Virus record (IMG/VR): IMGVR_UViG_3300025890_000010
Origin: a virus
Strand: one strand, 5' to 3'
Length of the DNA stretch: 33,369 nt
Below the pieces are notes generated by a model, which saw only the letters and a list, made by a program, of their open reading frames with translations, was not told the DNA's origin and ran no database searches. The translations under genes and the position numbers were made by a program. Of this stretch, positions 100 through 33,178 are shown piece by piece (the stretch's first letter is position 1; each line of letters begins with the position of its first letter).

Positions 100-747
100 C
101 TCTACGGCCATTAGCCCAAAATATTGAACTTCGACGCCTAAAAGCTTGGCACAAAGCAGATAATGCGCAGCTTGAAAGTGATACCCCAAGCGAAAAATGG
201 CCTTGCCAAAGTTCTTGGGATCAGCTTGGGCGGCTGTTTTCACGTCTCCCATAACTCTGAGCTTTGGCGAGTAAATATCGGGCCTACATTTCAGCAAGAG
301 ACCAGTGCTAGGATGTTCTACAAAGTAGCTATGCTCTACTTGCTTATCTTTTTGCTGTAGAAGCTTGCCGCAATGCTGATCGTTCATCAAGCCGCCTACA
401 ATCTCGCCATAATCAGCCTCAACGCCATGCACCATCCCCTTGACCATATCGTAGTCTTTGCGGGGCAGAACAACCTTGCCTTGCGCTTGGGCTAGTGCAT
501 CGAGTTCTTTGAAAGCTTTTGTTGCGCGTGACTTCTCATCTGAGACTAAAACATTGCCTAATTCATCTTCTAAAGCCATGCTATGAACGGCTGTTCCCAC
601 GTCTGCAACATGCTTGGCGAGGTTGAACTGATTATGCATCGCATGGAACGGTGACTTGGTGATCCATTGCTTTAAGAAAGAAGCGTTAACCCCTGTTTCT
701 GCATGATAATCTGCGTTTGTTATATCTTTGTATATGCCTTGTTTCAT
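1..747 (-). CDS. PD-(D/E)XK exonuclease (RecE/YqaJ-like), N-terminal 249 codons; the ORF runs off the left edge and is completed at 33193..33270
   Basis: Absent from the ORF track because it has no in-window stop. The ATG at 747 overlaps the methyltransferase stop (ATGA). All in-frame triplets from 747 down to 1 were checked and none is a stop. The translation starts MKQGIYKDITNADYHAETGVNASFLK and contains RPDIY, GDVKT (D-x-K) and FQAAHY (QxxxY) nuclease-type motifs. Confidence 0.8.
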   Translation of the reverse strand, partial: MKQGIYKDITNADYHAETGVNASFLKQWITKSPFHAMHNQFNLAKHVADVGTAVHSMALEDELGNVLVSDEKSRATKAFKELDALAQAQGKVVLPRKDYDMVKGMVHGVEADYGEIVGGLMNDQHCGKLLQQKDKQVEHSYFVEHPSTGLLLKCRPDIYSPKLRVMGDVKTAAQADPKNFGKAIFRLGYHFQAAHYLLCAKLLGVEVQYFGLMAVEKEWPYPAHFHTLDTEALEYATGVVETALQEIAE

Positions 748-1541
748 TGCTGCTCTTTCTCAAAAACCATTGCATCTTGCGTAGGTATTTGTTGTGTTTT
801 TTCATTGCTAATAAATAAATCGGGTTGCCGCGTAGCTTCATCAACGCGCTTGCAAGCTATCTCAAAATAATCAGGATCTAGCTCTATCCCTGTGCCTTGC
901 CTGCCAAGCTTTTGACACGCAACTAACGTTGTTCCGCTTCCTAAAAAAGGGTCTAAAATGGTTTGTGTTTCTGCTGTGAAGTCTTGCAAAATTTCAACTA
1001 ACAAACGCCAAGGTTTTTCTGTTGGATGCTTTCCATGCCTGTCGATTGCGTTAGTGTTGTGAATGTAAACACCGCGTTTACCACCGGCAAACCATTTTGC
1101 ATGACCGTTGCCATTCCAAGTAGTGATGAACGGTTCATAGCCTACTGCCGGCCCTTGTGCGTTTAGCTTTGGTAAGCAATCTGGTTTTACCCAAATACAA
1201 GTTGTTTTAAATTTTATTTTAGTATTATTAACAATTTCGGACCGCCAATTTCCAACCCCCTCTGCACTACAAAACGCTAGAAACCAACCGTTACAAAATG
1301 ACTCAATAAATTTAATAAGTTGTGGCCGTATTTTATCAACAGATTCAAAGTTAAGATTTTTTCGTCTTGCGCCACCATCTATTCGTCTTAATTTTGTATT
1401 CTCGTAATTTTTATGAAATATAGCCTCGTAAGGAGGATCGGTTACAACGGCGTCAAATCTGCCAAGCAAGGGCATGACTTTTAAGCAATCGCCTAAGATA
1501 AGCCTTTGGTTTCCTATTCTTTCTTCTTTTACGATAGCCAT
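744..1541 (-). CDS. DNA methyltransferase, N6-adenine/N4-cytosine type, beta-class motif order; orphan (no nuclease partner)
   Basis: DPPY catalytic motif near the N-terminus (VVTDPPYEA). AdoMet motif DPFLGSGTT near the C-terminus. 265 aa. Confidence 0.85.
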   Translation of the reverse strand: MAIVKEERIGNQRLILGDCLKVMPLLGRFDAVVTDPPYEAIFHKNYENTKLRRIDGGARRKNLNFESVDKIRPQLIKFIESFCNGWFLAFCSAEGVGNWRSEIVNNTKIKFKTTCIWVKPDCLPKLNAQGPAVGYEPFITTWNGNGHAKWFAGGKRGVYIHNTNAIDRHGKHPTEKPWRLLVEILQDFTAETQTILDPFLGSGTTLVACQKLGRQGTGIELDPDYFEIACKRVDEATRQPDLFISNEKTQQIPTQDAMVFEKEQQ

Positions 1542-1720
1542 GCAAATAGCCTCCGCAAAATGTATGACCTTGCAAAACTTAAGACAAAAAACGTTAAGGT
1601 GATTTCAGCAGCAACAACTGGATTAGGTTGAAAGCCCCATAGAGGGAACAGCCAATAAGTTGCAGCCCACGACACAAGCAAGCCAATAGTTGCATTACTA
1701 AATGCCTCTAAAGATGCCAT
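1529..1720 (-). CDS. Small two-TM membrane protein, unknown function
   Basis: The ATG at 1720 overlaps the RuvC stop (TGATG); the track start at 1723 is GTG. Two hydrophobic helices: IGLLVSWAATYWLFPLW and ITLTFFVLSFARSYIL. Confidence 0.55.
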   Translation of the reverse strand: MASLEAFSNATIGLLVSWAATYWLFPLWGFQPNPVVAAEITLTFFVLSFARSYILRRLFAWLS

Positions 1721-2190
1721 CACTCTACTGCCCTCGCATATGCAGCCATGAGCAACGCTTCGGCTCTGTGTTCATCTTTCTTGCGCTTTAGTTGGTCGCT
1801 TACTTTGGGAAACTGTTGGATTGCTAGGCGTCTTGCACCGTCTTTATCTGCCGGTATGTGCAACGCTTTTTTCCAACTTGCTGGCGTAACAATCTGGTGC
1901 TTGATGTTAAGCACGCCTACCGTTGACAGAATTTGACCGTAGCCCATACCAATTTTAAAGGCAGAGCTAACGCCTTGCTTCGGTCTTGCGCCTTGCTTCT
2001 CTATTATTAAGAAGTCGATCTGCGTGCTTTGCAGTATGTCTTTCAATTCGTGAGCGTTTAAGCCACCTTCTGCAAATGTAGGCAGATCATAGACTTGGCA
2101 CCAATCGCCACAGAGTAGGGCAACGCCACCAGTTTTGTAGCCAGGGTCGATGCCGCAATAGGTTCTATCTAGCCCCATTTTCGGCCTCAT
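1720..2190 (-). CDS. RuvC-like Holliday junction resolvase
   Basis: N-terminal CGIDPG motif, FLIIEKQ acidic motif, about 150 aa. An alternative start is at M5 (2178). Confidence 0.75.
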   Translation of the reverse strand: MRPKMGLDRTYCGIDPGYKTGGVALLCGDWCQVYDLPTFAEGGLNAHELKDILQSTQIDFLIIEKQGARPKQGVSSAFKIGMGYGQILSTVGVLNIKHQIVTPASWKKALHIPADKDGARRLAIQQFPKVSDQLKRKKDEHRAEALLMAAYARAVE

Positions 2191-2694: not shown

Positions 2695-3423
2695 ATGAAG
2701 TATGGAGGCTTCATTTTTGGTGCGTCGGAAGATCACCAGAAACAGCAACGCATTGGGATTAGAGCATTAGCCAAAGCCCAAAGCGCAGAGGTTAAATGGT
2801 TTGTAGAAGAAGAGGGGCGTCAGAAGCGCGATACAGAGGACAGAGAGGAGCTACAAGCGTGCGCTAGGTATTGCCGCACCAACAACGCCACTTTCGCACT
2901 CAGTTCGCTCTCTGGATTCACCAAACGCAAATGGCAAGGCATGACGTGGCTCAAGCATCAGATCGAAATGCATGACATGACGTTTGCGATTGCAGATGAC
3001 CCAACAATGACAAAAGGGTCATTGCATGTGCTCAGTGCGGCAGCAGACATTCAACGCGCACGTATTGCAGAGAAAAGCAAAGCCGCGTTGGACAATATAA
3101 AACGCAAACTTGATGCCGGTGAGGAGGTGATTGCCAAACGCTCTGGCAAAAAGGTTGAGAAGCTAGGCACGCATAAACACATTAGAAAATCTGCAAAGCT
3201 AGGCAACAAAGCCCAAGCGGAAAGAGCCGCAGAACGTGATGCACAAGTCTGGCCTATGATAGAGCAATATCTTGCACAAGGGCTAGGCTACAATGCGATT
3301 GCAAGGCAACTCAACATTCAAGGAATACCCACGCCCAACGATAAGGCACGGTATAAAAGAGACACGCTAGGGGTTTGGTATGCCTCAACAGTTCGCAATA
3401 TTGTATTACGGAGGCAAAAATGA
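2695..3423 (+). CDS. Serine-recombinase-like protein (resolvase-type N-domain plus a recombinase-domain-like C-terminal HTH), possibly catalytically degenerate
   Basis: The N-terminus FIFGASEDHQKQQ resembles the YxRVSTxxQ motif but has G where Arg is expected. LHVLSAAADIQRARIAEKSKAAL resembles the E-helix. The C-terminus GYNAIARQLNIQGIPTP...WYASTVRNIVLRR resembles the recombinase domain. GGAGG RBS. Confidence 0.55.
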   Translation: MKYGGFIFGASEDHQKQQRIGIRALAKAQSAEVKWFVEEEGRQKRDTEDREELQACARYCRTNNATFALSSLSGFTKRKWQGMTWLKHQIEMHDMTFAIADDPTMTKGSLHVLSAAADIQRARIAEKSKAALDNIKRKLDAGEEVIAKRSGKKVEKLGTHKHIRKSAKLGNKAQAERAAERDAQVWPMIEQYLAQGLGYNAIARQLNIQGIPTPNDKARYKRDTLGVWYASTVRNIVLRRQK

Positions 3424-16223: not shown

Positions 16224-16958
16224 CTAAAACGGTACTGGCATTCCAATATATTTAAGTGCTCCAAGAGTACCCAATATGCCTGGATTGTTTGTTTGCGTTT
16301 GCGACTGTGGTGTAGGCGCTGCACCTAACGCAGCAAGTGGCGCGGATAGGCTTTGCATTGGGCTGTTTGAGTAGCCCGCGAAATCACCCCTAGCGGCGTC
16401 AATGAGTTGCTGTTGGAGCATTTGCTGTAGCAAGCCTTGTTGCATCATATCCTGGTTAAGCGTGCGACCAGTTGTAAATGCCTGGTTAGCCAAACCGCCT
16501 AACTGATTAGCTGCTGCAACTCTTTGCGCTCGATCAGTCATTGCGTTGCTCGTAGCAGTGTTAAAAGCATCACGTCGCATAGGCGCTATTAGGTTGCCTG
16601 CCATACGACCAAATTCAGCATTAGTAACACCTTCCGCAACGCCTTGCCTCGAACCGCCAAAAGCGTTTGCCCTTGTTGCTGCTGCGCCCATGTTGTTGAT
16701 CGCCATTTGCCTTTGTCGTTCAATATCGCTTTGCGTGCGGTCAATGACGTTTTGCGTGTACGGGTTCATGTAAGCGCCCACATTCAGCGGGGCTGCAATT
16801 GCTTGCTGCGTTGCGCCCATTGCACCCTGCAACCCAGTTGACGCAGCTTGATTTACGTTAAACCCTGGCTGCGGTTGCATAGGCGCTACTGTCATTGCGT
16901 TTGGCTGTTGATTTACTGGCTGTACTTGACCGCCGCCCTTTGATCCTTGGCCTGCCAT
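16224..16958 (-). CDS. Hypothetical Q/M/A-rich virion protein
   Basis: 244 aa. The start overlaps the upstream stop. Confidence 0.5.
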   Translation of the reverse strand: MAGQGSKGGGQVQPVNQQPNAMTVAPMQPQPGFNVNQAASTGLQGAMGATQQAIAAPLNVGAYMNPYTQNVIDRTQSDIERQRQMAINNMGAAATRANAFGGSRQGVAEGVTNAEFGRMAGNLIAPMRRDAFNTATSNAMTDRAQRVAAANQLGGLANQAFTTGRTLNQDMMQQGLLQQMLQQQLIDAARGDFAGYSNSPMQSLSAPLAALGAAPTPQSQTQTNNPGILGTLGALKYIGMPVPF

Positions 16959-18622
16959 TATGTTGTCACCTTTGCTGCTGCGATTTTTTCAATGTCTTTT
17001 AGTATTGCGCTACTTATGCCCGTTTTTTCTTGGAAGGTACTTAAATCTCCCCCAAATTTTGCCATGAAACTTTCGGCGTAGGCTCCCAAGTTTCCTTCAC
17101 GAGCCGCTTTATCTAAAACTTTTCTTGTGGCTTTCACGTTGCCTTTACCAGTTGGAATACCTTTACCCGCTAACGCAGCCTGCTCTGCCACTTCAGTTGT
17201 TGTTAATGTTCCAAACTGCCTTTCGAGAGCCATTATTTGATCCCCGGCTAAATTCGTGCCCTCGTCAAGCAAGGCTTGGCCGCCGACTGTCTCAATTGCG
17301 CTATTTAGCTCGCTTGCCCTACGTTGCGCTGAATTTTCAGTACTTGCAGTTCTAGCCGCTATTTCATCTGCAAGCCTTGCTTTAGCCTCTGGAGTTGCAG
17401 AGCCAAAAATGTTTGATAAAACACCCGGTTCAGGAGTTGTGTAGCCTGCCGCCGCCGCGAGAGCAGGGTCAACTTGGCCTGCGCCATAACCCACACTTAC
17501 GCTTGATCCAAAATCGTTTGTGAATGTATTGTTACGACCTTGCTTAGATGGGTCTGCGTAGGTTGAAAAATCATAGCCCTGCGTGCTTAATCCTAAGTTA
17601 AAATCACTTGCTGATCTTATGTCTGGGCCTTCTGTGTAAACCTCTGGGCTTACGCCGTAGGCTGCTTCCATTGCCTCCAAACCCTCTGCGCTTGGTTCAA
17701 GTGTACCGACAAATTGCCCTGTGCTTGGGCTTTTATAGGCTGGTCTACCATAATCATCAAAATAATTTATGTCAGGATTATAGAACTGATACTTTTGCCC
17801 TGGCACGTCTGGTATTTCAAAACCAGTGCCGATGAGGTTTGCGTTTAGTGCATCCAAATCTGTTTCTGCAATAGCATCGCCAGGTTGAGCGTCATTCAAC
17901 GGCACAATCGGAGGCGTGGTGTCAGGCCCAAATATACCAGGTATAAATCCTGGCTGAAACTCTGGCGGCGTATATGGGATCACTGGAACCTCTGGCACTG
18001 GTGGTGGTCCAGGTGGTATTACTGGAGGCACTACAGGTGGTATTACTACAGGTGGTATTAGGCCACCACCGCCACCACCGCCGCCACCGCCGCCACCGTT
18101 TCCACCGCCACCGTTTCCACCGCCGCCACCGTTTCCACCGCCGCCACCGTTTCCACCGCCGCCGCCGCCACCACCGTTTCCACCGCCGCCACCGCCGCCG
18201 TTGCCTGGGACACCTGGAACTACGCCAGGGGGTAGCGCAAATGGAGGACTGCCAGGGTCGATGAACATATCATTGATTGCAGAGAATTGGTCTGGTCGGT
18301 TATACGCAAAATCTGCCATTGACTGATTAAACAAAGGCGCGGCGCTGTAGGCTCTAATTCCGTTCGCGTATTCTGTTGGAGCGCCCATGCCGCCGTATAT
18401 GTCTGCGCCTGCCGGGGTGCCTAAACCAAAAGCATCAGCAGCTTGCGCCGTGTTGCCAAACGCAGACATCTGCATAGGCGTGAAAGCAGCCGTCGTTGCG
18501 CCAAAGCTTTGCGGAACGTAACCTAATTTAGAAATTATGTCTGCTCGCGCTAAATTTGCTTTTGCCGCATCCTCAATGTATTGAGGTATTTCAACCTGTG
18601 TCGTGCTGCCGCCCTTGCTCAT
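16958..18622 (-). CDS. Virion protein with a 48-residue Gly/Asn tract and a 35-residue Pro-rich tract (internal/ejection or tail protein candidate)
   Basis: 554 aa. Residues 140-187 are G/N only. Residues 188-222 read LIPPVVIPPVVPPVIPPGPPPVPEVPVIPYTPPEF. Confidence 0.55.
   Translation of the reverse strand: MSKGGSTTQVEIPQYIEDAAKANLARADIISKLGYVPQSFGATTAAFTPMQMSAFGNTAQAADAFGLGTPAGADIYGGMGAPTEYANGIRAYSAAPLFNQSMADFAYNRPDQFSAINDMFIDPGSPPFALPPGVVPGVPGNGGGGGGGNGGGGGGGGNGGGGGNGGGGGNGGGGNGGGGGGGGGGGGLIPPVVIPPVVPPVIPPGPPPVPEVPVIPYTPPEFQPGFIPGIFGPDTTPPIVPLNDAQPGDAIAETDLDALNANLIGTGFEIPDVPGQKYQFYNPDINYFDDYGRPAYKSPSTGQFVGTLEPSAEGLEAMEAAYGVSPEVYTEGPDIRSASDFNLGLSTQGYDFSTYADPSKQGRNNTFTNDFGSSVSVGYGAGQVDPALAAAAGYTTPEPGVLSNIFGSATPEAKARLADEIAARTASTENSAQRRASELNSAIETVGGQALLDEGTNLAGDQIMALERQFGTLTTTEVAEQAALAGKGIPTGKGNVKATRKVLDKAAREGNLGAYAESFMAKFGGDLSTFQEKTGISSAILKDIEKIAAAKVTT
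18062..18205. repeat. Imperfect tandem repeat (CCACCGCCGCCACCGTTT-type units) encoding the Gly/Asn tract
   Basis: The plus strand shows repeated CCACCGTTTCCACCGCCG units. This also creates the artefactual plus-strand ORF 17974..18264. Confidence 0.85.
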
Positions 18623-21408: not shown

Positions 21409-23346
21409 TTATGCTATTGCGTAAAAAAGAATGGTAGCCCCTCCTGCAAAATTTAAACCACCACCATTTTTTACTTTAAAACCACTGGCGTGAGGTTCAA
21501 TATTATTACCATCTGTTGCTGCTGCATCAGTAGTATTCAACTCTAAAAATTGATCACTGCCAGTTGAAATTCCACGACCTACATCAAAAATAAACCAGTT
21601 ATCCCAATTAGCAGATCCACTAGTAGTACGTTTTAAAAGCACAAACCTTGCTCCTGCTGAAAAGCCACAATCAACTATTAAATCTGAAGAGCTTGTTGAA
21701 AATGTACCAACTTTACTGACACCTGGGCAAGTAGCAAACAATAGGGCTATTGGTTTAGAATATGGGTTTGACACAAGACCTGTGACATTTAGATCGGTGT
21801 CCGTTGTACTTGCCATATAATCAGTACTATTTATTATACCACCATTGGTATTAAGTGTCATAAGCTGACCACCTGTTGTTGCACTGTTATATACATACCA
21901 AGAGTCTGAAGTTCCTCTATACTTCAAAATAACTAAATCTGGTTTGACCCCTAGATTATGCTTGACTGAATTAAGAGTTCCTGATGCCCCCTCCCAAGTT
22001 ACCACATCAAAAAAACCTGGTGCACGCTTCCACATCCATGCTGTATAACTTCCACCTGATCCACGTTCCCACACACCATTATTATAATCCCAAAGCATGC
22101 TGTTGCTGTTAAGTTCAGCAGCAGTTGTGTTTGTTGACATATACTTTGTGCCTACTAGTCTTGAGTTAGAAAGCCAATCGCCACTAGAACCTGGTACTTT
22201 TGCAATCATGTGATCTGTAACAAAATTAGATTCAAAAGCAGGTTGACCTACCACGTTTGCTTGCGCAGCATCAATAGCAAAAACCTTTGTCGCATCATCT
22301 GGCACATTTAGACTGCCTCTGCGTAGTGCCATGAAGATAAAAGTTTGACTTGCAGCAATATAACCATCGTGAAAAAAACCAGTTGAAGTAGGAACAATAC
22401 CTGACGTACCTCCTGTTGAAGATTCAGCACCACTTGTGTCTGCATAAAGACGAGCATTTTCTACAGGATTATCGTGATACATACCTCTTATAGTATCCAG
22501 TAAATACCAGTTTGACGTTGCAGTTGAACATTTTACAAGCACAAATTGAGGTTCAAAACCTAAATTAACAGTAGCATCTCCATTTCCATCAGTATTATAA
22601 CTCCCACACTTAATAATATCTTGGTCACTATCAGGGCCGAACCCACCGTCATTGTTGTTGTGAGCAAAAACATACATTACATATGTAGAGCCAGTAGCAT
22701 TTACGCCACTATCAGAACCAAGCGTAACTGTTGTTGAAGATGGGGTAGTGTTATTCCAAAAAATGCCACCGTCAGAATAAGCTGGAGAAGTGTTATTTAT
22801 CTGTAAATATTTATTGTTTGCAATACCTCTGTGCCAACATATCCAGTTGTTAGAAGTATTAGTTCTTTTTACCCAAACTTGGCCTACTGCACACCCTAGA
22901 TTATGGCTTATCGTTCTACCTGCTGTTGAATTTCCTGAGTATGTAATACACTGAAAAAATTTAGGGGCTTTGCGAAATGTCCAAGAAACCACGTCTTCAT
23001 TATTAAAGAACGAGTGAGAAAGATCAGAAACAAAACCATTAGAGTTAAAAGAACTTACACCAGATGGTATACCTGCTGACGGATTAGCTGTCCATTCTGC
23101 ATAAGTATTACTTGCGTCTAACCCTTTTCCTGCACCTCGTGCAGTATCTGTTAGCCTATGATTGTCAGCTACACTTCTAGTCTTAGTCCAAACCAAGCCA
23201 CCTTCACCACTTAGGTCAATGTTGTTTGTAATCGTTTGCGTAGAGCTATTACCAGTGTATAAATAAGTGCTAAACACGTCATCTATATCAAGAGTTGCAC
23301 CACCTGCACTAGAGGCCGCTGCCGCTACTATTTTAGAAGCTGTCAT
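21409..23346 (-). CDS. Tail fibre / receptor-binding protein with 5-6 internal domain repeats
   Basis: 645 aa. Repeated units include WTFRKAPKFFQCITYSGNSTAGRTISHNLGCAVGQVWVKRTNTSNNW, WMWKRAPGFFDVVTWEGASGTLNSVKHNLGVKPDLVILKYRGTSDSW, the CGSYNTDGNGDATVNLGFEPQFVLVKCSTATSNW unit and the VGTFSTSSSDLIVDCGFSAGARFVLLKRTTSGSANW unit. Confidence 0.65.
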   Translation of the reverse strand: MTASKIVAAAASSAGGATLDIDDVFSTYLYTGNSSTQTITNNIDLSGEGGLVWTKTRSVADNHRLTDTARGAGKGLDASNTYAEWTANPSAGIPSGVSSFNSNGFVSDLSHSFFNNEDVVSWTFRKAPKFFQCITYSGNSTAGRTISHNLGCAVGQVWVKRTNTSNNWICWHRGIANNKYLQINNTSPAYSDGGIFWNNTTPSSTTVTLGSDSGVNATGSTYVMYVFAHNNNDGGFGPDSDQDIIKCGSYNTDGNGDATVNLGFEPQFVLVKCSTATSNWYLLDTIRGMYHDNPVENARLYADTSGAESSTGGTSGIVPTSTGFFHDGYIAASQTFIFMALRRGSLNVPDDATKVFAIDAAQANVVGQPAFESNFVTDHMIAKVPGSSGDWLSNSRLVGTKYMSTNTTAAELNSNSMLWDYNNGVWERGSGGSYTAWMWKRAPGFFDVVTWEGASGTLNSVKHNLGVKPDLVILKYRGTSDSWYVYNSATTGGQLMTLNTNGGIINSTDYMASTTDTDLNVTGLVSNPYSKPIALLFATCPGVSKVGTFSTSSSDLIVDCGFSAGARFVLLKRTTSGSANWDNWFIFDVGRGISTGSDQFLELNTTDAAATDGNNIEPHASGFKVKNGGGLNFAGGATILFYAIA

Positions 23347-29451: not shown

Positions 29452-29533
29452 AGTTGGAGCAACGCAGGGAGAAACACAACGCTTACTCTCAGACAAACAC
29501 AGAAAAAGCTTCTGTAATGCCATCATACACCAT

Positions 29534-29839
29534 TTAGTCATCCCACGTAAAAACTCGTGCATCTTCACCGGCTAAACGATAGGCAATCACCAAATAGTTT
29601 ATCTGGTCAATCAAGCTATCCTCATGAAACCCATTGTCATCCATACGCGCTGCCTTCAGTTCTGCCATCATCCTTGCAACATCGTAGGCCGACAGAGAGA
29701 CTCCCTGAGTGAGCTTTTCTTTCAACACGCCGTTCCACCTATCTGCAATGCTTTGGTGCATTTCTCGGGCGTCTCCGTAGCTCTCCTGACGTTCTGCAAC
29801 TATTTGCTCCGCTTTGTTAAAGATCTTCTTGTAGTTCAT
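29534..29839 (-). CDS. Small conserved phage protein (DUF6378-like pattern)
   Basis: 101 aa. RQESYGDAREMHQSIADRWNGVL...DVARMMAELKAARM...HEDSLIDQINYLVIAY. Confidence 0.5.
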   Translation of the reverse strand: MNYKKIFNKAEQIVAERQESYGDAREMHQSIADRWNGVLKEKLTQGVSLSAYDVARMMAELKAARMDDNGFHEDSLIDQINYLVIAYRLAGEDARVFTWDD

Positions 29840-30167
29840 CTATCTCATCCTTTGTTCTAGCTCGATATTTTGCGTAGCCTCTTTCACTGACTACCTTGAC
29901 GTATTGTCGATCTATTAAACTCAGCAACACTTGCATCACGTCTTTCAACTCTTCATCCAATGCGCCTGCTAGGTCTTTTGCTGTGATGACACCGTGACTA
30001 CGCATAAAGTCGAGAATGTGTAGCTCTGGCTTTGTAAGTGGTTCACGCCAAACCCTACGCCGTTTGTCATCTGGCAAAGCTGCACGTAAACCCAGACGCG
30101 CACGTTTTCGCTCAAACGTCATCATTCGCTTTTTTAGCATTTCCTCATCCATGCCGTTGAAGCTCAT
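29817..30167 (-). CDS. Winged-helix DNA-binding protein candidate
   Basis: 116 aa. LTKPELHILDFMRSHGVITAKDLAGAL...LLSLIDRQYVKVV resembles a MarR/wHTH layout. Confidence 0.45.
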   Translation of the reverse strand: MSFNGMDEEMLKKRMMTFERKRARLGLRAALPDDKRRRVWREPLTKPELHILDFMRSHGVITAKDLAGALDEELKDVMQVLLSLIDRQYVKVVSERGYAKYRARTKDEIDELQEDL

Positions 30168-30369
30168 ACTTGCGTTGGAGAATGATTTGCTTTTGCGCCT
30201 CGCTCCAGGTTGAGAGGTTAGGGTTGTTCAAAACACGCCGACGATTGGCAACACCTTCCAACTCAGCGAGTGATTTTACATCAGCAATAGCGCGTTTAAA
30301 TTCTTCATTCTGCAACTTGGAATAATCAGGAGCCTTCCAACGTAATTTCTTTACATCTTCTAAGCTCAT
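30145..30369 (-). CDS. Hypothetical small protein
   Basis: ATG at 30369 (MSLEDVKKLRWK). The track start at 30402 is TTG and would run into the iteron region. Confidence 0.45.
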   Translation of the reverse strand: MSLEDVKKLRWKAPDYSKLQNEEFKRAIADVKSLAELEGVANRRRVLNNPNLSTWSEAQKQIILQRKYELQRHG

Positions 30370-30388
30370 GGCTTGCCACCATTTAGCA

Positions 30389-30565
30389 ATACCAGTTCGC
30401 AAGCTATACCACTACCAATACCTATAGGTATTTGGTATTGGTGGTATACCAAGCCTTGCCTAATACCAAATGAATACCAAACGTATACCAAAAATACCAT
30501 TTGTGTAATTTTATGTAATAATATCAATGACATAATTTTGACCATTTTTGGTATACCATTGGTAT
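30389..30565. promoter_or_regulatory. Iteron cluster plus AT-rich tract: candidate replication origin (or dense operator array)
   Basis: At least 13 copies of ATACCA/TGGTAT. They include four direct copies starting at 30463, 30474, 30485 and 30494, two TGGTATACCA palindromes (30442..30451 and 30549..30558), and the 16-bp palindrome AATACCTATAGGTATT (30417..30432). A roughly 48-bp AT-rich stretch lies at 30500..30548. Confidence 0.55.
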
Positions 30566-30570
30566 AGTCC

Positions 30571-32475
30571 TCATAATTTGTACTTTTGCCGTACCAACCA
30601 GAAAAACCCTTGATTTTTGCTTATTTCGCCTTTTTGAAGCAGCCCATCGACGGCTCTGACATAGGCTTGGCTTTTGTTGGTAGCGGTTACTTTTCCGTAA
30701 AAATGTTTACGCAGATCATCTTCCTCAATGACCCATCTTGACCCCCCATCAGGCCATCCAGTACCACCGGGATTTTGCTTGCCAACGTGCTCTGACCAAA
30801 GCTGTTTAAAGCAGCTCATCACAAGGTTTTCATTTTTGGTAAACTTTACTTTTGCGTCTTGTTGCCGTTCCTCATCCACTGGCACGACATAGCAGCTAGT
30901 GACAGGATCACCGTCCTCATCTACACCTAGCTCAACAGCGTTCAACTCAAATGCAAACTCTTTGCCGCTTTCAATGTCTCTTTGTTTCGTTGCTTTGGCA
31001 AAGCGCATTTTTGCATCTTCGTCATATGTAAGCTCGATTTCTGTATCCGTTGCAGCGCGTAAGCTACTATGACCTCTTGCAGTATCGGTTGATTTGCCTG
31101 AGTGATGCACTGTAGCGACAGCACAAGCGGCATGTTCTCGCAGCGCATCAACGTTGGCTATATATGCGGTCATATCTTCGGGGCCGTTTTCATTGCCGCC
31201 TGAGAGTGCTCTACTTAGTGTGTCTACGACGATTAGTTCTATCTTGCCGTGTTTTTCTGCTACGGCGTCGATCAATTGTTTTAGCTTTGGCAAGTCTGCT
31301 TCTGGGTTTAGCAAGTTGACAGGGCAGGGCCGTATTGCAAGCTTTACGTTTTCGTCTTGGTAATGGTCTTGCAGAACTCTTGCTCTGTTGAGATAGCCGT
31401 TGCCACCTTCTGCTGCGAGATAGATGGTTACGCCTTGTTTAACTCTTTGCCCATGCCAATCTCTGCCTGCTGCAATGTGGTAGGCCATATCTAGCATTAG
31501 GAACGATTTGCCTGTGTTGCTTTGGCCGTAGAGCACTGCCATTTGTTCGCGCCCTAGCCATCCTTTTATGAGATAGTTTGATCTTAGTATGGGTTGCGCG
31601 TCATTTATCCAGACAAGCTCATCTAGGATGTTTGGCTCAACATAAGCATCGTGCAGCCGCTCTAAGCCTTGTTTAACGCTGTCTAAGCCTTCGCTAACGT
31701 GTATATCGTTCCAATCTGCACCATTTATTTCGGGAAGTGCATACTGCCTCTTTGACGCTTTAGCGGCTGCAATTCCTGGCGTATCATTATCTGCTGCAAT
31801 CTGCAACATAATATCTGGCCATTGTATAGCAAACGCATTGCAAATCTTGGGGAGGGTGCCTGCATCGAGCGCAAAGATCACTGGCACTTGCTGATCTAAC
31901 GCCATGTGCACGCTAACCCCAGTTGCATAACCTTCTGTGACCCATGCTGTACAATCGCCTGTGAGCGTACCTATAACGCCAAAAGCCTGATCTTTGACCA
32001 AACCTTTGTTGAACTTCTTTAGCCCATTGGGTGATATTCTTTGATGCCCAACAACCTCTTGCTCAAAATTATACAAAGGGATTACAACCGTATCACCATC
32101 AAGTTCAGCATTTATTAGCTCGATTTGTTTTGCCTCAATGTAGTTTGTCATATTGCTGCCCGGTTTTAGCTTAATTATGTTTTCAAAATCGCTTGCAGTT
32201 GGTTTATGCTCAAACGCATTTTCTTGTTTAAAAACAGGCCACACGCCGTCGTGCTTCATCTCATCTGTGATGCTACGGAAGTCGTTACACTGTCTGCAAT
32301 GCACTTTGACCATGCCCTGATATTCGTTGATGCGAAACCTATCTGTGCCACCGCATGATGGACACGCAGAATGATATTCAGCTTTTGAATTACCACCAGA
32401 GACGCGCTTCATGTTGTATCTGGTGATAATCAAGTCTGACCATTCTGACCAATATGGCTGTTCGTAGTCAGGCAT
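30571..32475 (-). CDS. Bifunctional primase/helicase: zinc ribbon, Toprim and a RecA-like (AAA_25/RepA-type) NTPase
   Basis: CPSCGG...CRQC zinc ribbon. Toprim TEGYATG...AADNDTPG. Walker A GQSNTGKSF. Walker B ELIVVDTLS. Start chosen at MPDYEQ (32475), after TAGGAC; the track start at 32499 overlaps the SSB gene. Confidence 0.85.
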   Translation of the reverse strand: MPDYEQPYWSEWSDLIITRYNMKRVSGGNSKAEYHSACPSCGGTDRFRINEYQGMVKVHCRQCNDFRSITDEMKHDGVWPVFKQENAFEHKPTASDFENIIKLKPGSNMTNYIEAKQIELINAELDGDTVVIPLYNFEQEVVGHQRISPNGLKKFNKGLVKDQAFGVIGTLTGDCTAWVTEGYATGVSVHMALDQQVPVIFALDAGTLPKICNAFAIQWPDIMLQIAADNDTPGIAAAKASKRQYALPEINGADWNDIHVSEGLDSVKQGLERLHDAYVEPNILDELVWINDAQPILRSNYLIKGWLGREQMAVLYGQSNTGKSFLMLDMAYHIAAGRDWHGQRVKQGVTIYLAAEGGNGYLNRARVLQDHYQDENVKLAIRPCPVNLLNPEADLPKLKQLIDAVAEKHGKIELIVVDTLSRALSGGNENGPEDMTAYIANVDALREHAACAVATVHHSGKSTDTARGHSSLRAATDTEIELTYDEDAKMRFAKATKQRDIESGKEFAFELNAVELGVDEDGDPVTSCYVVPVDEERQQDAKVKFTKNENLVMSCFKQLWSEHVGKQNPGGTGWPDGGSRWVIEEDDLRKHFYGKVTATNKSQAYVRAVDGLLQKGEISKNQGFFWLVRQKYKL

Positions 32476-32479
32476 TGTC

Positions 32480-33178
32480 CTAGAATGGTATTTCATCATC
32501 TAGATCATTGGTTGCAGCTTGCTTATCTTTCTTGCCAAGATCATCACCAAAAGCAGACTTTTTAGGTGCCTTTGGTTCATCCTTTTTGCCGTCTAGCAAG
32601 TCTGCAAATTCGTTTACGATTGCATCAACTGGCGCTTCAACAAGGTCATTAAATGGATTGCTTTGTTCTTGCTGTTCACGTTCTGCAAGCTCAACCACCA
32701 TCACGCCTTCTGGCCGTAGCTGCACCCCTGTTTTACCTGCGAATGACCAAGGGTAGATTTTAAGCATAACGTGTATTGTGCTATTGGTCGTTAGCTGAAA
32801 ATCGTCTGCTGCTTTGCTGCCATCTTTCATGTATTGGCGTGGCTTACTATTGGCGTCCTGGTAGGTTTTTTTGACAAGCTTGGCGATACGTCCAGTATTA
32901 TCCTCGTTTTGCGGAAATATATCTTCAATATCAGTTGCGTAAAACGGCTCTGACTTTGTTTTGTCGCTTTCTTTCCAAGCTTTGCGCATTTGGTTGGCAA
33001 GGTCTTTGGCTTGCTCGTGATCCATAATGACGTGCATTTCATACTTGCCGTCTGGGTCCGTTGCATCGCAAGGCACACTGCCACCTTTGGGCCTGTTTTC
33101 AGTAGGGGTTGGGTCAAATTTGTATGCTCTGTCCAGTTTCGGCCAAAGTGCTTTGACGTTTGTTAATCGATAATCCAT
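32480..33178 (-). CDS. T7 gp2.5-like single-stranded DNA-binding protein
   Basis: LKIYPWSFAGKTGVQLRPEGVMVVELAE parallels T7 gp2.5 VKYSLVPYKW...VKLQLESVMLVELAT. Acidic C-terminal tail ends in DDEIPF. AAGGAGA RBS. Confidence 0.7.
   Translation of the reverse strand: MDYRLTNVKALWPKLDRAYKFDPTPTENRPKGGSVPCDATDPDGKYEMHVIMDHEQAKDLANQMRKAWKESDKTKSEPFYATDIEDIFPQNEDNTGRIAKLVKKTYQDANSKPRQYMKDGSKAADDFQLTTNSTIHVMLKIYPWSFAGKTGVQLRPEGVMVVELAEREQQEQSNPFNDLVEAPVDAIVNEFADLLDGKKDEPKAPKKSAFGDDLGKKDKQAATNDLDDEIPF

Follow-up and report, generated by a model that had tools for sequence, protein, structure and literature searches.

A 201-bp intergenic gap in the virus record IMGVR_UViG_3300025890_000010 (positions 30370-30570 of the 33,369-nucleotide stretch analysed, hereafter the window) carries an array of short inverted repeats directly after a primase/helicase gene. 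We propose that this gap is a replication origin and that its 6-8-bp iterons are bound by the primase/helicase itself via a predicted C-terminal winged-helix domain (CTD, residues ~555-642), a reading to which, judging from comparative sequence data, we assign a probability of roughly 0.7. We observed that the repeats are enriched in the gap, that their layout and position are conserved in relatives, which make up a large family of marine and soil phages, and that the iteron co-varies with the CTD; the winged-helix fold is a prediction. An earlier note, made from the letters of the window alone, had named the repeats and the AT-rich tract beside them a candidate origin. The conserved layout, the co-variation of repeat word and CTD, and the match with the Rep-ori arrangement of Staphylococcus aureus pathogenicity islands (SaPIs; PMC9371898) all appear to support that proposal.

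Repeat array and its layout in relatives

Twelve exact copies of the hexamer ATACCA/TGGTAT lie within the non-coding segment 30389-30565, where the rate outside the gap predicts 0.117 copies per 177 bp (Poisson P(>=12) = 1.3e-20). The earlier count of at least 13 holds only if one-mismatch copies are included, four of which are present (CTACCA at 30412, ATACCT/AGGTAT at 30418/30426 and ATATCA at 30521). The whole 33.4-kb window contains 34 exact copies versus 13.5 expected, a number reached in none of 100 shuffles. Outside the gap the copies are scattered, and their only local groups (17810-18058 and 21836-21900) both lie inside coding sequence, the former in a tandem repeat.

The array is laid out as two inverted units. 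The first repeat begins 5 bp from the stop codon of the primase/helicase gene (30571-30573), in agreement with the earlier description of an array abutting the 3' end of that gene. A proximal pair of iterons pointing away from the primase gene (30549-30565) includes the 10-bp palindrome TGGTATACCA and is followed by a 49-bp AT-rich spacer (30500-30548), a candidate DNA-unwinding element whose G+C content of 18% (45% for the window) ranks in the lowest 0.08% of all 49-bp segments of the window. Beyond the spacer stand four direct ATACCA iterons, inverted relative to the proximal pair (30463-30499; copies at 30463, 30474, 30485 and 30494, spaced 11, 11 and 9 bp). In the second inverted unit, the left arm (30433-30451) holds two iterons, TGGTAT at 30433 and TGGTATACCA at 30442; the central dyad is the perfect 16-bp palindrome AATACC-TATA-GGTATT (30417-30432); and the right arm (30389-30417) comprises the one-mismatch copy CTACCA at 30412, ATACCA at 30406 and a distal ATACCA at 30389, just upstream of the 74-aa gene whose start (30369) bounds the gap. 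The spacing of the four direct repeats, the two copies of TGGTATACCA (30442-30451 and 30549-30558), the 16-bp palindrome and the AT-rich tract had been reported in the earlier note, and all were recovered in the sequence. Folded as a single strand, the gap gives two large hairpins, one per array half (z = -4.8 and -4.5), because the array has two inverted-repeat units.

The earlier note had suggested a comparison with related genomes, and in more than 60 non-redundant relatives we found repeats at the same locus, with the word changing. An IMG/VR scan for relatives of the primase/helicase returned 80 loci, and in nearly all of those with enough downstream DNA a hexamer recurs 8-14 times in the 450 bp that follow the primase stop. 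The repeat word differs by lineage (ATACCA, CGTACCA, CGTAACA, (C/A)TGTCG, GGAGGA, GTCCTAAA and ACTACAAA, and further GTCGGAAA, TGTATGAAA, TGTAGAAAA, GTGTAAAA, ATGTGAAA and ATGTCCTAAA). Counted from the primase stop, the shared layout consists of two copies, a spacer of 39-52 bp, four opposite copies, ~12 bp, a further two copies oriented like the first pair, a small dyad, two opposite copies, ~10 bp, one copy and the next start codon. Pairs equivalent to the proximal pair of the window stand directly after the stop codon, and the 39-52-bp spacer is AT-rich relative to its own genome in most lineages. Within the four-iteron set the spacings are 9-12 bp with a mean of 10.2 (35 non-redundant arrays), and the three spacings total about three helical turns.

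The layout is also present in cultured phages and in other elements. Roseobacter phage CRP-811 (L081) has the same array with the word ACTACAAA, and its gene order (nuclease, SSB (the protein that binds single-stranded DNA), helicase, array) is that of the window. In a tblastn search, the primase/helicase matched Roseobacter phages CRP-811/821/822/823/831 at 45-51% identity over the helicase and CTD, and shared replication and structural genes place the window's phage among the CRP-822-type roseophages. In the paper describing these roseophages the words primase, iteron and repeat are absent, and "origin" occurs only within "originate". Rhizobium phage 16-3 (L084) shows the same layout, with 15 copies of CGTGACA in 367 bp versus 0.57 expected in 4 kb; a limited literature search found no mapped origin for this phage. 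The same layout was found in a high-GC integrase-adjacent element, where the array lies within the 3' end of a called open reading frame (ORF), and in a circular Methylobacterium element of 35 kb, at a helicase identity of only 26%. A PLSDB search for small replicons with this helicase gave 17 records, mostly large or prophage-like, one of which is this 35-kb circular element with the same array. Moreover, the array persists in lineages with different downstream genes.

The breadth of this comparison bears on whether the stretch is coding, that is, whether a 59-aa ORF (30366-30545, minus strand), which runs through the array and whose end overlaps the 74-aa gene start in an ATGA, encodes a real small protein with the repeats as its by-product. 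The ORF is absent from half of the lineages, although the gene-direction frame is open through the array in 31 of the 63 non-redundant ones and ORFs have been called there in public contigs. Its translations are W/Y/G-rich read-outs of the repeats and, even where close relatives share an iteron, differ by non-conservative changes; a 64-aa ORF (30373-30567) is open on the opposite strand as well. Dyad symmetry, orientation pattern and helical phasing are constraints at the DNA level, and we consider a coding function highly improbable. The 59-aa ORF is probably spurious, and its openness across lineages with different iterons is not fully explained.

The core of the central dyad, C-T-(A/T)-T-A-G (CTWTAG), is invariant in 30 distinct lineages. 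The outer arms vary by lineage yet stay complementary (AATACC/GGTATT, CACTCC/GGAGTG, CCAGTC/GACTGG and CCCCCC/GGGGGG). In the dyad alignment, 90.5% of cells are paired versus 69.9% in shuffles, and covariation is 0.509 versus 0.148, a level reached in 0 of 500 shuffles. The dyad sits exactly midway between the inverted iterons (30417-30432 in the window; L084 2880-2905; L089 3655-3672; L082 3115-3130). Its core is retained despite changes of the iteron, of the helicase type (the L017-type loci described below), of the primase type and of the host, and it is also present in phage 16-3, the high-GC integrative element and the Methylobacterium element. Therefore, the dyad either serves a conserved component as its site or acts structurally, as a hairpin/cruciform or a melting nucleus.

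An invariant dyad could also be a host-factor site, as might be expected if the array were a centromere-like partition site or another protein-loading site bound by a different (e.g. host) factor. Phased short-repeat clusters flanking a centre do resemble ParR/parC-type centromeres such as parC of plasmid R1. However, the change of word between near-identical phages is not something that a host factor can explain, and among the genes scanned neither a ParA/ParM-type ATPase nor a ParB/ParR-like gene was detected, so we give this explanation very little weight.

The spacers of many relatives (L043-L080, e.g. L049, L072 and L078) match the consensus of integration host factor (IHF), WATCAANNNNTTR, well (AATCAATGGGTTA), and phage 16-3 has an IHF-like match, TATCAATGACTTG (L084 2580-2600). 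The window carries an IHF-similar sequence, ATATCAATGAC, at 30520-30535 in the opposite orientation and without the TTR part, which is a lead only.

Elsewhere in the window, a possible second iteron cluster at 18014-18058 was rejected, as its copies sit in a GGTGGTATTAC repeat within coding sequence. Only CCACCG, near 18066, forms another hexamer cluster in the window that is equally dense or denser, and it is an unrelated coding tandem repeat. This repeat (17990-18110, within the minus-strand ORF 16958-18622) has three copies of GGTGGTATTAC followed by CCACCG-type repeats, which reach up to 14 copies per 177 bp and belong to a Gly/Pro-rich stretch of a 554-aa probable structural protein.

Co-variation of the repeat word with the helicase C-terminal domain

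Across the loci compared, the iteron word changes with the CTD of the primase/helicase and, as far as the neighbouring proteins reveal, apparently with no other of them. L005, L006 and L016 carry the iteron CGTACCA, L008 carries CGTAACA, and L007, L029 and L069 carry a mixture of A/C/G-TACCA. The primase/helicases of L005, L007 and L008 are 96-100% identical over ~550 aligned columns and 76-90% identical over the last ~100 aa; within the protein, only the CTD diverges along with a change of iteron word. Among these three loci, DNA identity is lower only between about -300 and +200 around the stop codon, and only a few substitutions, conservative ones, distinguish their downstream proteins of 74 and ~110 aa.

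A larger exchange separates the window from the L017-type loci (L017-L021, L023, L026, L028 and L030), which are otherwise near-identical to it and carry the repeat (C/A)TGTCG instead of ATACCA. Identity with the window is 78-96% for the SSB, 96-99% for the 116-aa winged helix-turn-helix (wHTH) protein, 93-97% for the DUF6378 protein, 99% for terS and 98% for terL; in the primase/helicase, the N-terminal ~250 aa are 92-100% identical and the helicase plus CTD 16-43%. The break-points lie at the domain junction of the primase/helicase (~residue 270-290) and ~25-30 codons into the 74-aa gene. From these mosaic identities, the exchanged unit is the helicase, the CTD, the array and the first ~25 codons of the 74-aa gene. 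The N-terminus of the 74-aa protein thus goes with the helicase type, a hint that the two may be functionally linked.

When all pairs among 46 distinct proteins were compared (~1000 locus pairs), truly different iterons never occurred with CTDs that were at least 88% identical, and the only apparent exceptions to the pairing of CTD and iteron were register shifts of the same word. Additionally, at matched helicase-core identity, pairs with the same iteron had the more similar CTDs.

Three candidate binders had been named earlier, namely the primase/helicase, the 116-aa wHTH protein and the 74-aa protein. The primase/helicase is favoured, as its CTD co-varies with the iteron. The wHTH protein, together with terS, the SSB and the DUF6378 protein, was rejected as iteron reader; these proteins are near-identical across phages with different iterons and are excluded as specificity determinants because they are conserved while the repeats change. 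The 74-aa protein is an unlikely binder because it is nearly unchanged in L005, L007 and L008 and absent from distant array-bearing lineages, with the caveat that its N-terminal ~25 aa are co-swapped in the L017-type cassette.

These comparisons also bear on the possibility that the repeats are operators of the promoter of the downstream (packaging/late) operon and time late transcription, with replication starting elsewhere or, in a milder version, with the array serving as both origin and operator. The array does lie between the replication genes and the 74-aa/116-aa/terS/terL operon on one strand, a wHTH protein gene is located two genes downstream, and a -10-like TAAAAT in the spacer is common to close lineages. 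However, that wHTH protein is 96-99% identical in phages with entirely different repeats, the word tracks the helicase CTD, and the array is kept where the downstream genes differ. A promoter and terminator scan of the gap cuts both ways: no terminator was found after the primase gene, which would suit an operator role, but no sigma-70-type promoter was found on the minus (gene) strand, and the -35 region is neither conserved nor properly spaced. We therefore judge it unlikely that the repeats are operators with replication starting elsewhere.

With terS 99% identical in L018 and L030, whose repeats are unrelated to those of the window, it is very doubtful that the small terminase binds the array as a packaging site of pac or cosB-like type. 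What such a site would account for is the resemblance to lambda cosB, in that short-repeat arrays are accompanied by an IHF-like site in some relatives, and the location of terS/terL ~1.3 kb downstream. Four genes separate the array from terS, however, and the array follows helicase homologues in elements with other downstream gene content.

The CTD (residues 555-642; 30574-30837, minus strand) is our proposed iteron-binding, or origin-binding, domain. Modelled with AlphaFold2 on a 30-sequence alignment, the last 130 residues have a mean predicted local distance difference test (pLDDT) score of 88 and show, after a beta-hairpin linker, a helix, a strand, two helices and a beta-hairpin (H-b-H-H-b-b), a winged-helix topology. 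In a Foldseek search of the PDB, nearly all top matches to this model are winged-helix domains, with probabilities of 0.85-0.99 but E-values of 0.01-0.2; they include the DNA-binding domain of CRP/FNR, the winged helices of MCM4, Hel308 and Rpa2, and the DNA-bound winged helix of KAT6A. Because these winged-helix matches come with no match in Pfam or, by sequence, in the PDB, the CTD appears to represent a sequence family without annotation whose fold is a generic DNA-binding one.

The third helix of the model, KSQAYVRAVDGLLQK (residues 609-623; 30631-30675, minus strand; model residues 97-111), is the putative recognition helix. It is the most variable part of the CTD and co-varies with the iteron. 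The residue that co-varies with the first iteron base is Ser610, at helix position 2: an NK-S/N-QA helix goes with ATACCA, and an NK-R-QA helix goes with CGTACCA or CGTAACA. In newly fetched loci, all four Arg-bearing proteins had CGTA(C/A)CA iterons in the same layout (4/4). Such a rule is plausible because the reading of guanine by Arg is chemically ordinary. Taken together, the case that iteron and CTD changed in concert rests on the break-points at domain boundaries, repeated independent switches, the lack of counter-examples and this residue rule.

The mixed arrays of L007, L029 and L069 (first 210 bp after the stop) have GTACCA as outermost copies, as in the sister lineage L005, and ATACCA or CTACCA as inner copies, and their CTDs have Ser, not Arg, at the co-varying position. 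This heterogeneity may reflect a specificity switch in transition or a relaxed reading of the first base.

A search of 1.84 billion representative proteins with the CTD profile, clustered at 50% identity, yielded a family of 999 clusters, and among the matches listed the CTD was at the C-terminus in every one. An AAA_25 helicase domain precedes it in 10 of the 10 members scanned against Pfam. The N-termini of these ten gave either no match (including helicase-only proteins of ~375 aa) or the DnaB N-domain, and closer relatives have a Toprim or an archaeo-eukaryotic primase (AEP) Prim-Pol primase. The primase module is interchangeable before the same helicase and CTD (P0104-P0119; loci L042-L080, L081, L084 and L089), occurring as a Zn-ribbon/Toprim fusion as in the window, as a fusion of AEP Prim-Pol and PriCT_2, or as a separate Toprim or Prim-Pol gene. 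In further variants, the helicase and CTD are preceded by a DnaB N-domain, or the primase is absent.

Comparison with known replication systems and proposed mechanism

The origin of SaPIs lies immediately downstream of rep and contains 6-12 penta- or hexanucleotide iterons with an AT-rich centre, at least two on each side in opposite orientation, which are read by the winged-helix domain in the CTD of Rep (PMC9371898). The specificity of Rep and ori differs between elements, pri is fused to rep in SaPI5 (PriRep5), no loader is known for SaPI Reps, and these are placed in a superfamily-3 (SF3) helicase clade (PMC9371898). As in the pri-rep-ori module of SaPIs, the repeats of the window (12 exact hexamers) directly follow the helicase ORF, the primase is fused or adjacent, and two copies, a 49-bp spacer at 18% G+C and four inverted copies succeed one another; moreover, the iteron word changes with the helicase CTD, as two natural cassette swaps show. 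Unlike the SF3 Reps, the helicase of the window is of the RecA-type AAA_25 family, and its only relative in the PDB is RSF1010 RepA. The CTDs of the two systems have no sequence similarity, the family of the window has a second inverted iteron unit around the invariant CTWTAG dyad, and its host elements are tailed phages instead of satellites. Because its helicase is RecA-type instead of SF3, the window is an analogue of the self-loading origins of the SaPI/P4 type and not a member of that family.

In the gp-alpha protein of P4, a primase of the DnaG/Toprim type is joined to a helicase and, at the C-terminus, to an origin-binding winged-helix domain by which short repeats are read (PMC4889955). 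The protein of the window likewise has primase, helicase and a predicted C-terminal winged-helix domain in one polypeptide, whereas the helicase of P4 alpha belongs to SF3 (D5-type). Replication of P4 also depends on another repeat cluster, crr, which lies several kb from ori; no second non-coding ATACCA cluster was found in the window, which is less than the whole genome.

A 2016 survey of replication in dsDNA viruses describes origin-binding-domain fusions for SF3 and only primase fusions for superfamily 4 (SF4) (PMC4889955). The SF4 proteins T7 gp4, RSF1010 RepA and corynephage BFK20 gp43 share with the window a RecA-type, DnaB/RepA-like helicase, which is fused to a Toprim primase in T7 gp4, as in the window, and combined with an AEP primase in BFK20 gp43, as in the more distant relatives of the window. 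Unlike all three, the helicase of the window has a putative origin-binding domain of its own. In RSF1010 the iterons are bound by a separate initiator, RepC, and the primary origin of T7 uses promoters.

The archaeal plasmid pRN1 has an essential region with a long stem-loop after the ORF904 primase-helicase gene (PMC4234260). The window, folded as a single strand, also gives a large hairpin downstream of its primase-helicase gene, in each array half. pRN1 differs in being archaeal and in encoding a prim-pol with an SF3 helicase, and hexamer iteron arrays are not its described feature. Iteron plasmids (pPS10, R6K, RK2, F and P1) resemble the window in having repeats read by winged helices, as we predict here, beside an AT-rich unwinding element, and the IHF-like sites in some relatives' spacers add to this likeness. 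Plasmid iterons are 17-22-bp direct repeats, and a dedicated Rep recruits host DnaA/DnaB. In contrast, the words of the window family are 6-8 bp long and occur in both orientations, and the helicase itself appears to act as binder. The gap 30370-30570 contains no DnaA box, even when up to 2 mismatches are allowed, and no separate initiator or Rep was recognised among the neighbouring genes scanned (Pfam, PHROGs), as the earlier note had also reported.

We infer that iteron binding, melting, helicase loading and the start of replication take place in the gap. We hypothesize that helicase subunits dock on the two oppositely oriented iteron sets, which flank the 49-bp AT-rich spacer and also the small CTWTAG dyad. 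Given the ~10.2-bp spacing, the docked subunits would be gathered on one helix face, and rings would be assembled on either side. The AT-rich tract and/or the dyad would then melt, the RecA-type helicase would thereby be loaded without a separate initiator or loader, and the fused Toprim primase would make the first primers.

Several observations weigh against the reading of the gap as an origin bound by the CTD. Self-loading is documented for SF3-type Reps, and no description of it for RecA-type RepA-like helicases was found in the literature searched. The winged-helix assignment is predicted at the level of fold only: Foldseek returned nothing at E <= 0.001 against the PDB with the CTD model, and neither the CTD profile against the PDB nor the CTD sequence against Pfam gave a meaningful match. 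The CTD adjoins the array, and joint replacement by recombination would yield part of the co-variation; linkage therefore contributes to it. A second residue rule, linking Asn before NK to A at iteron position 5, did not hold for one of the new loci (P0002). The long AT-rich spacer is missing in the L017-type and high-GC relatives, so the site of unwinding is uncertain. The array lies directly upstream of the next operon and may therefore have a regulatory role, and GC skew is uninformative about the replication start because it only tracks gene orientation.

Genomic setting and implications

All genes flanking the gap are on the minus strand. In gene order, a Gp2.5-like SSB/annealing protein (32480-33178) comes before the primase/helicase (30571-32499), a protein of 642 aa composed of a Zn-ribbon, a Toprim primase, a RecA-type AAA_25 helicase and the CTD. 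Its Pfam matches are AAA_25 (E=9e-37), Zn_Ribbon_Prim (1.6e-7) and Toprim_3 (2e-5); it also matches the primase/helicase families of PHROGs, and its sole sequence match in the PDB is the RSF1010 RepA helicase, 1g8y. The 74-aa gene (30145-30369) is the first after the array and has no Pfam or PHROG match. Its homologues are always the first gene after the array, and a motif, ELE(G/A)(V/I/F)ANRR(K/R), is strongly conserved in the protein and its homologues across Toprim-clade phages. The gene for the 116-aa weak wHTH protein (29817-30167) is followed by those for the DUF6378 protein, a 161-aa protein, a small-terminase-like protein and the large terminase, and by structural genes.

A blastn search of the region against GenBank phages gave no DNA match, Rfam gave a single spurious miRNA match on 29500-31500 (E = 0.21), and no tRNA genes were found in the window. 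At the far end of the window lie a DNA methyltransferase gene (744-1541, minus strand) and a RuvC-like resolvase gene (1720-2190, minus strand), and a 242-aa protein with weak DNA-invertase/serine-recombinase similarity is encoded on the opposite strand (2695-3423).

Beyond the window, we see a slightly better than even chance that these proteins form a large unannotated family of RecA-type (SF4, RepA/DnaB-like) helicases that carry their own winged-helix origin-binding domain with re-programmable iteron specificity. At 50% identity the family would comprise ~1000 clusters, with members in roseophages, in rhizobiophage 16-3 and in elements of integrative or plasmid-like type. If this holds, one polypeptide would be initiator, helicase and often primase, and would be self-loading at a bipartite origin in which inverted hexamer iterons surround the invariant CTWTAG dyad. 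A few recognition-helix residues would set the specificity (Ser/Asn for A, Arg for G), and the cassette of helicase, CTD and origin would be swapped between otherwise near-identical phages. Such exchange could set replicon incompatibility or immunity between co-infecting phages, and a swappable cassette of this kind suggests diversifying selection on replicon specificity among co-circulating phages.

RecA-type bacterial-style helicases are normally thought to require a separate initiator and loader. If our proposal is true, the principle of a helicase that is its own initiator would be extended from SF3 (SV40 LTag, papillomavirus E1, P4 alpha and SaPI Rep) to the RecA type. The natural matched pairs of CTD and iteron would be a ready data set for a protein-DNA recognition code, in which the prediction for a Ser610-to-Arg change is open to a single-mutant test. 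For annotation, the ORFs that span these arrays in public contigs are probably false calls. Finally, the gap and its primase/helicase would provide a defined origin and initiator for the abundant CRP-822-type marine roseophages and for rhizobiophage 16-3.

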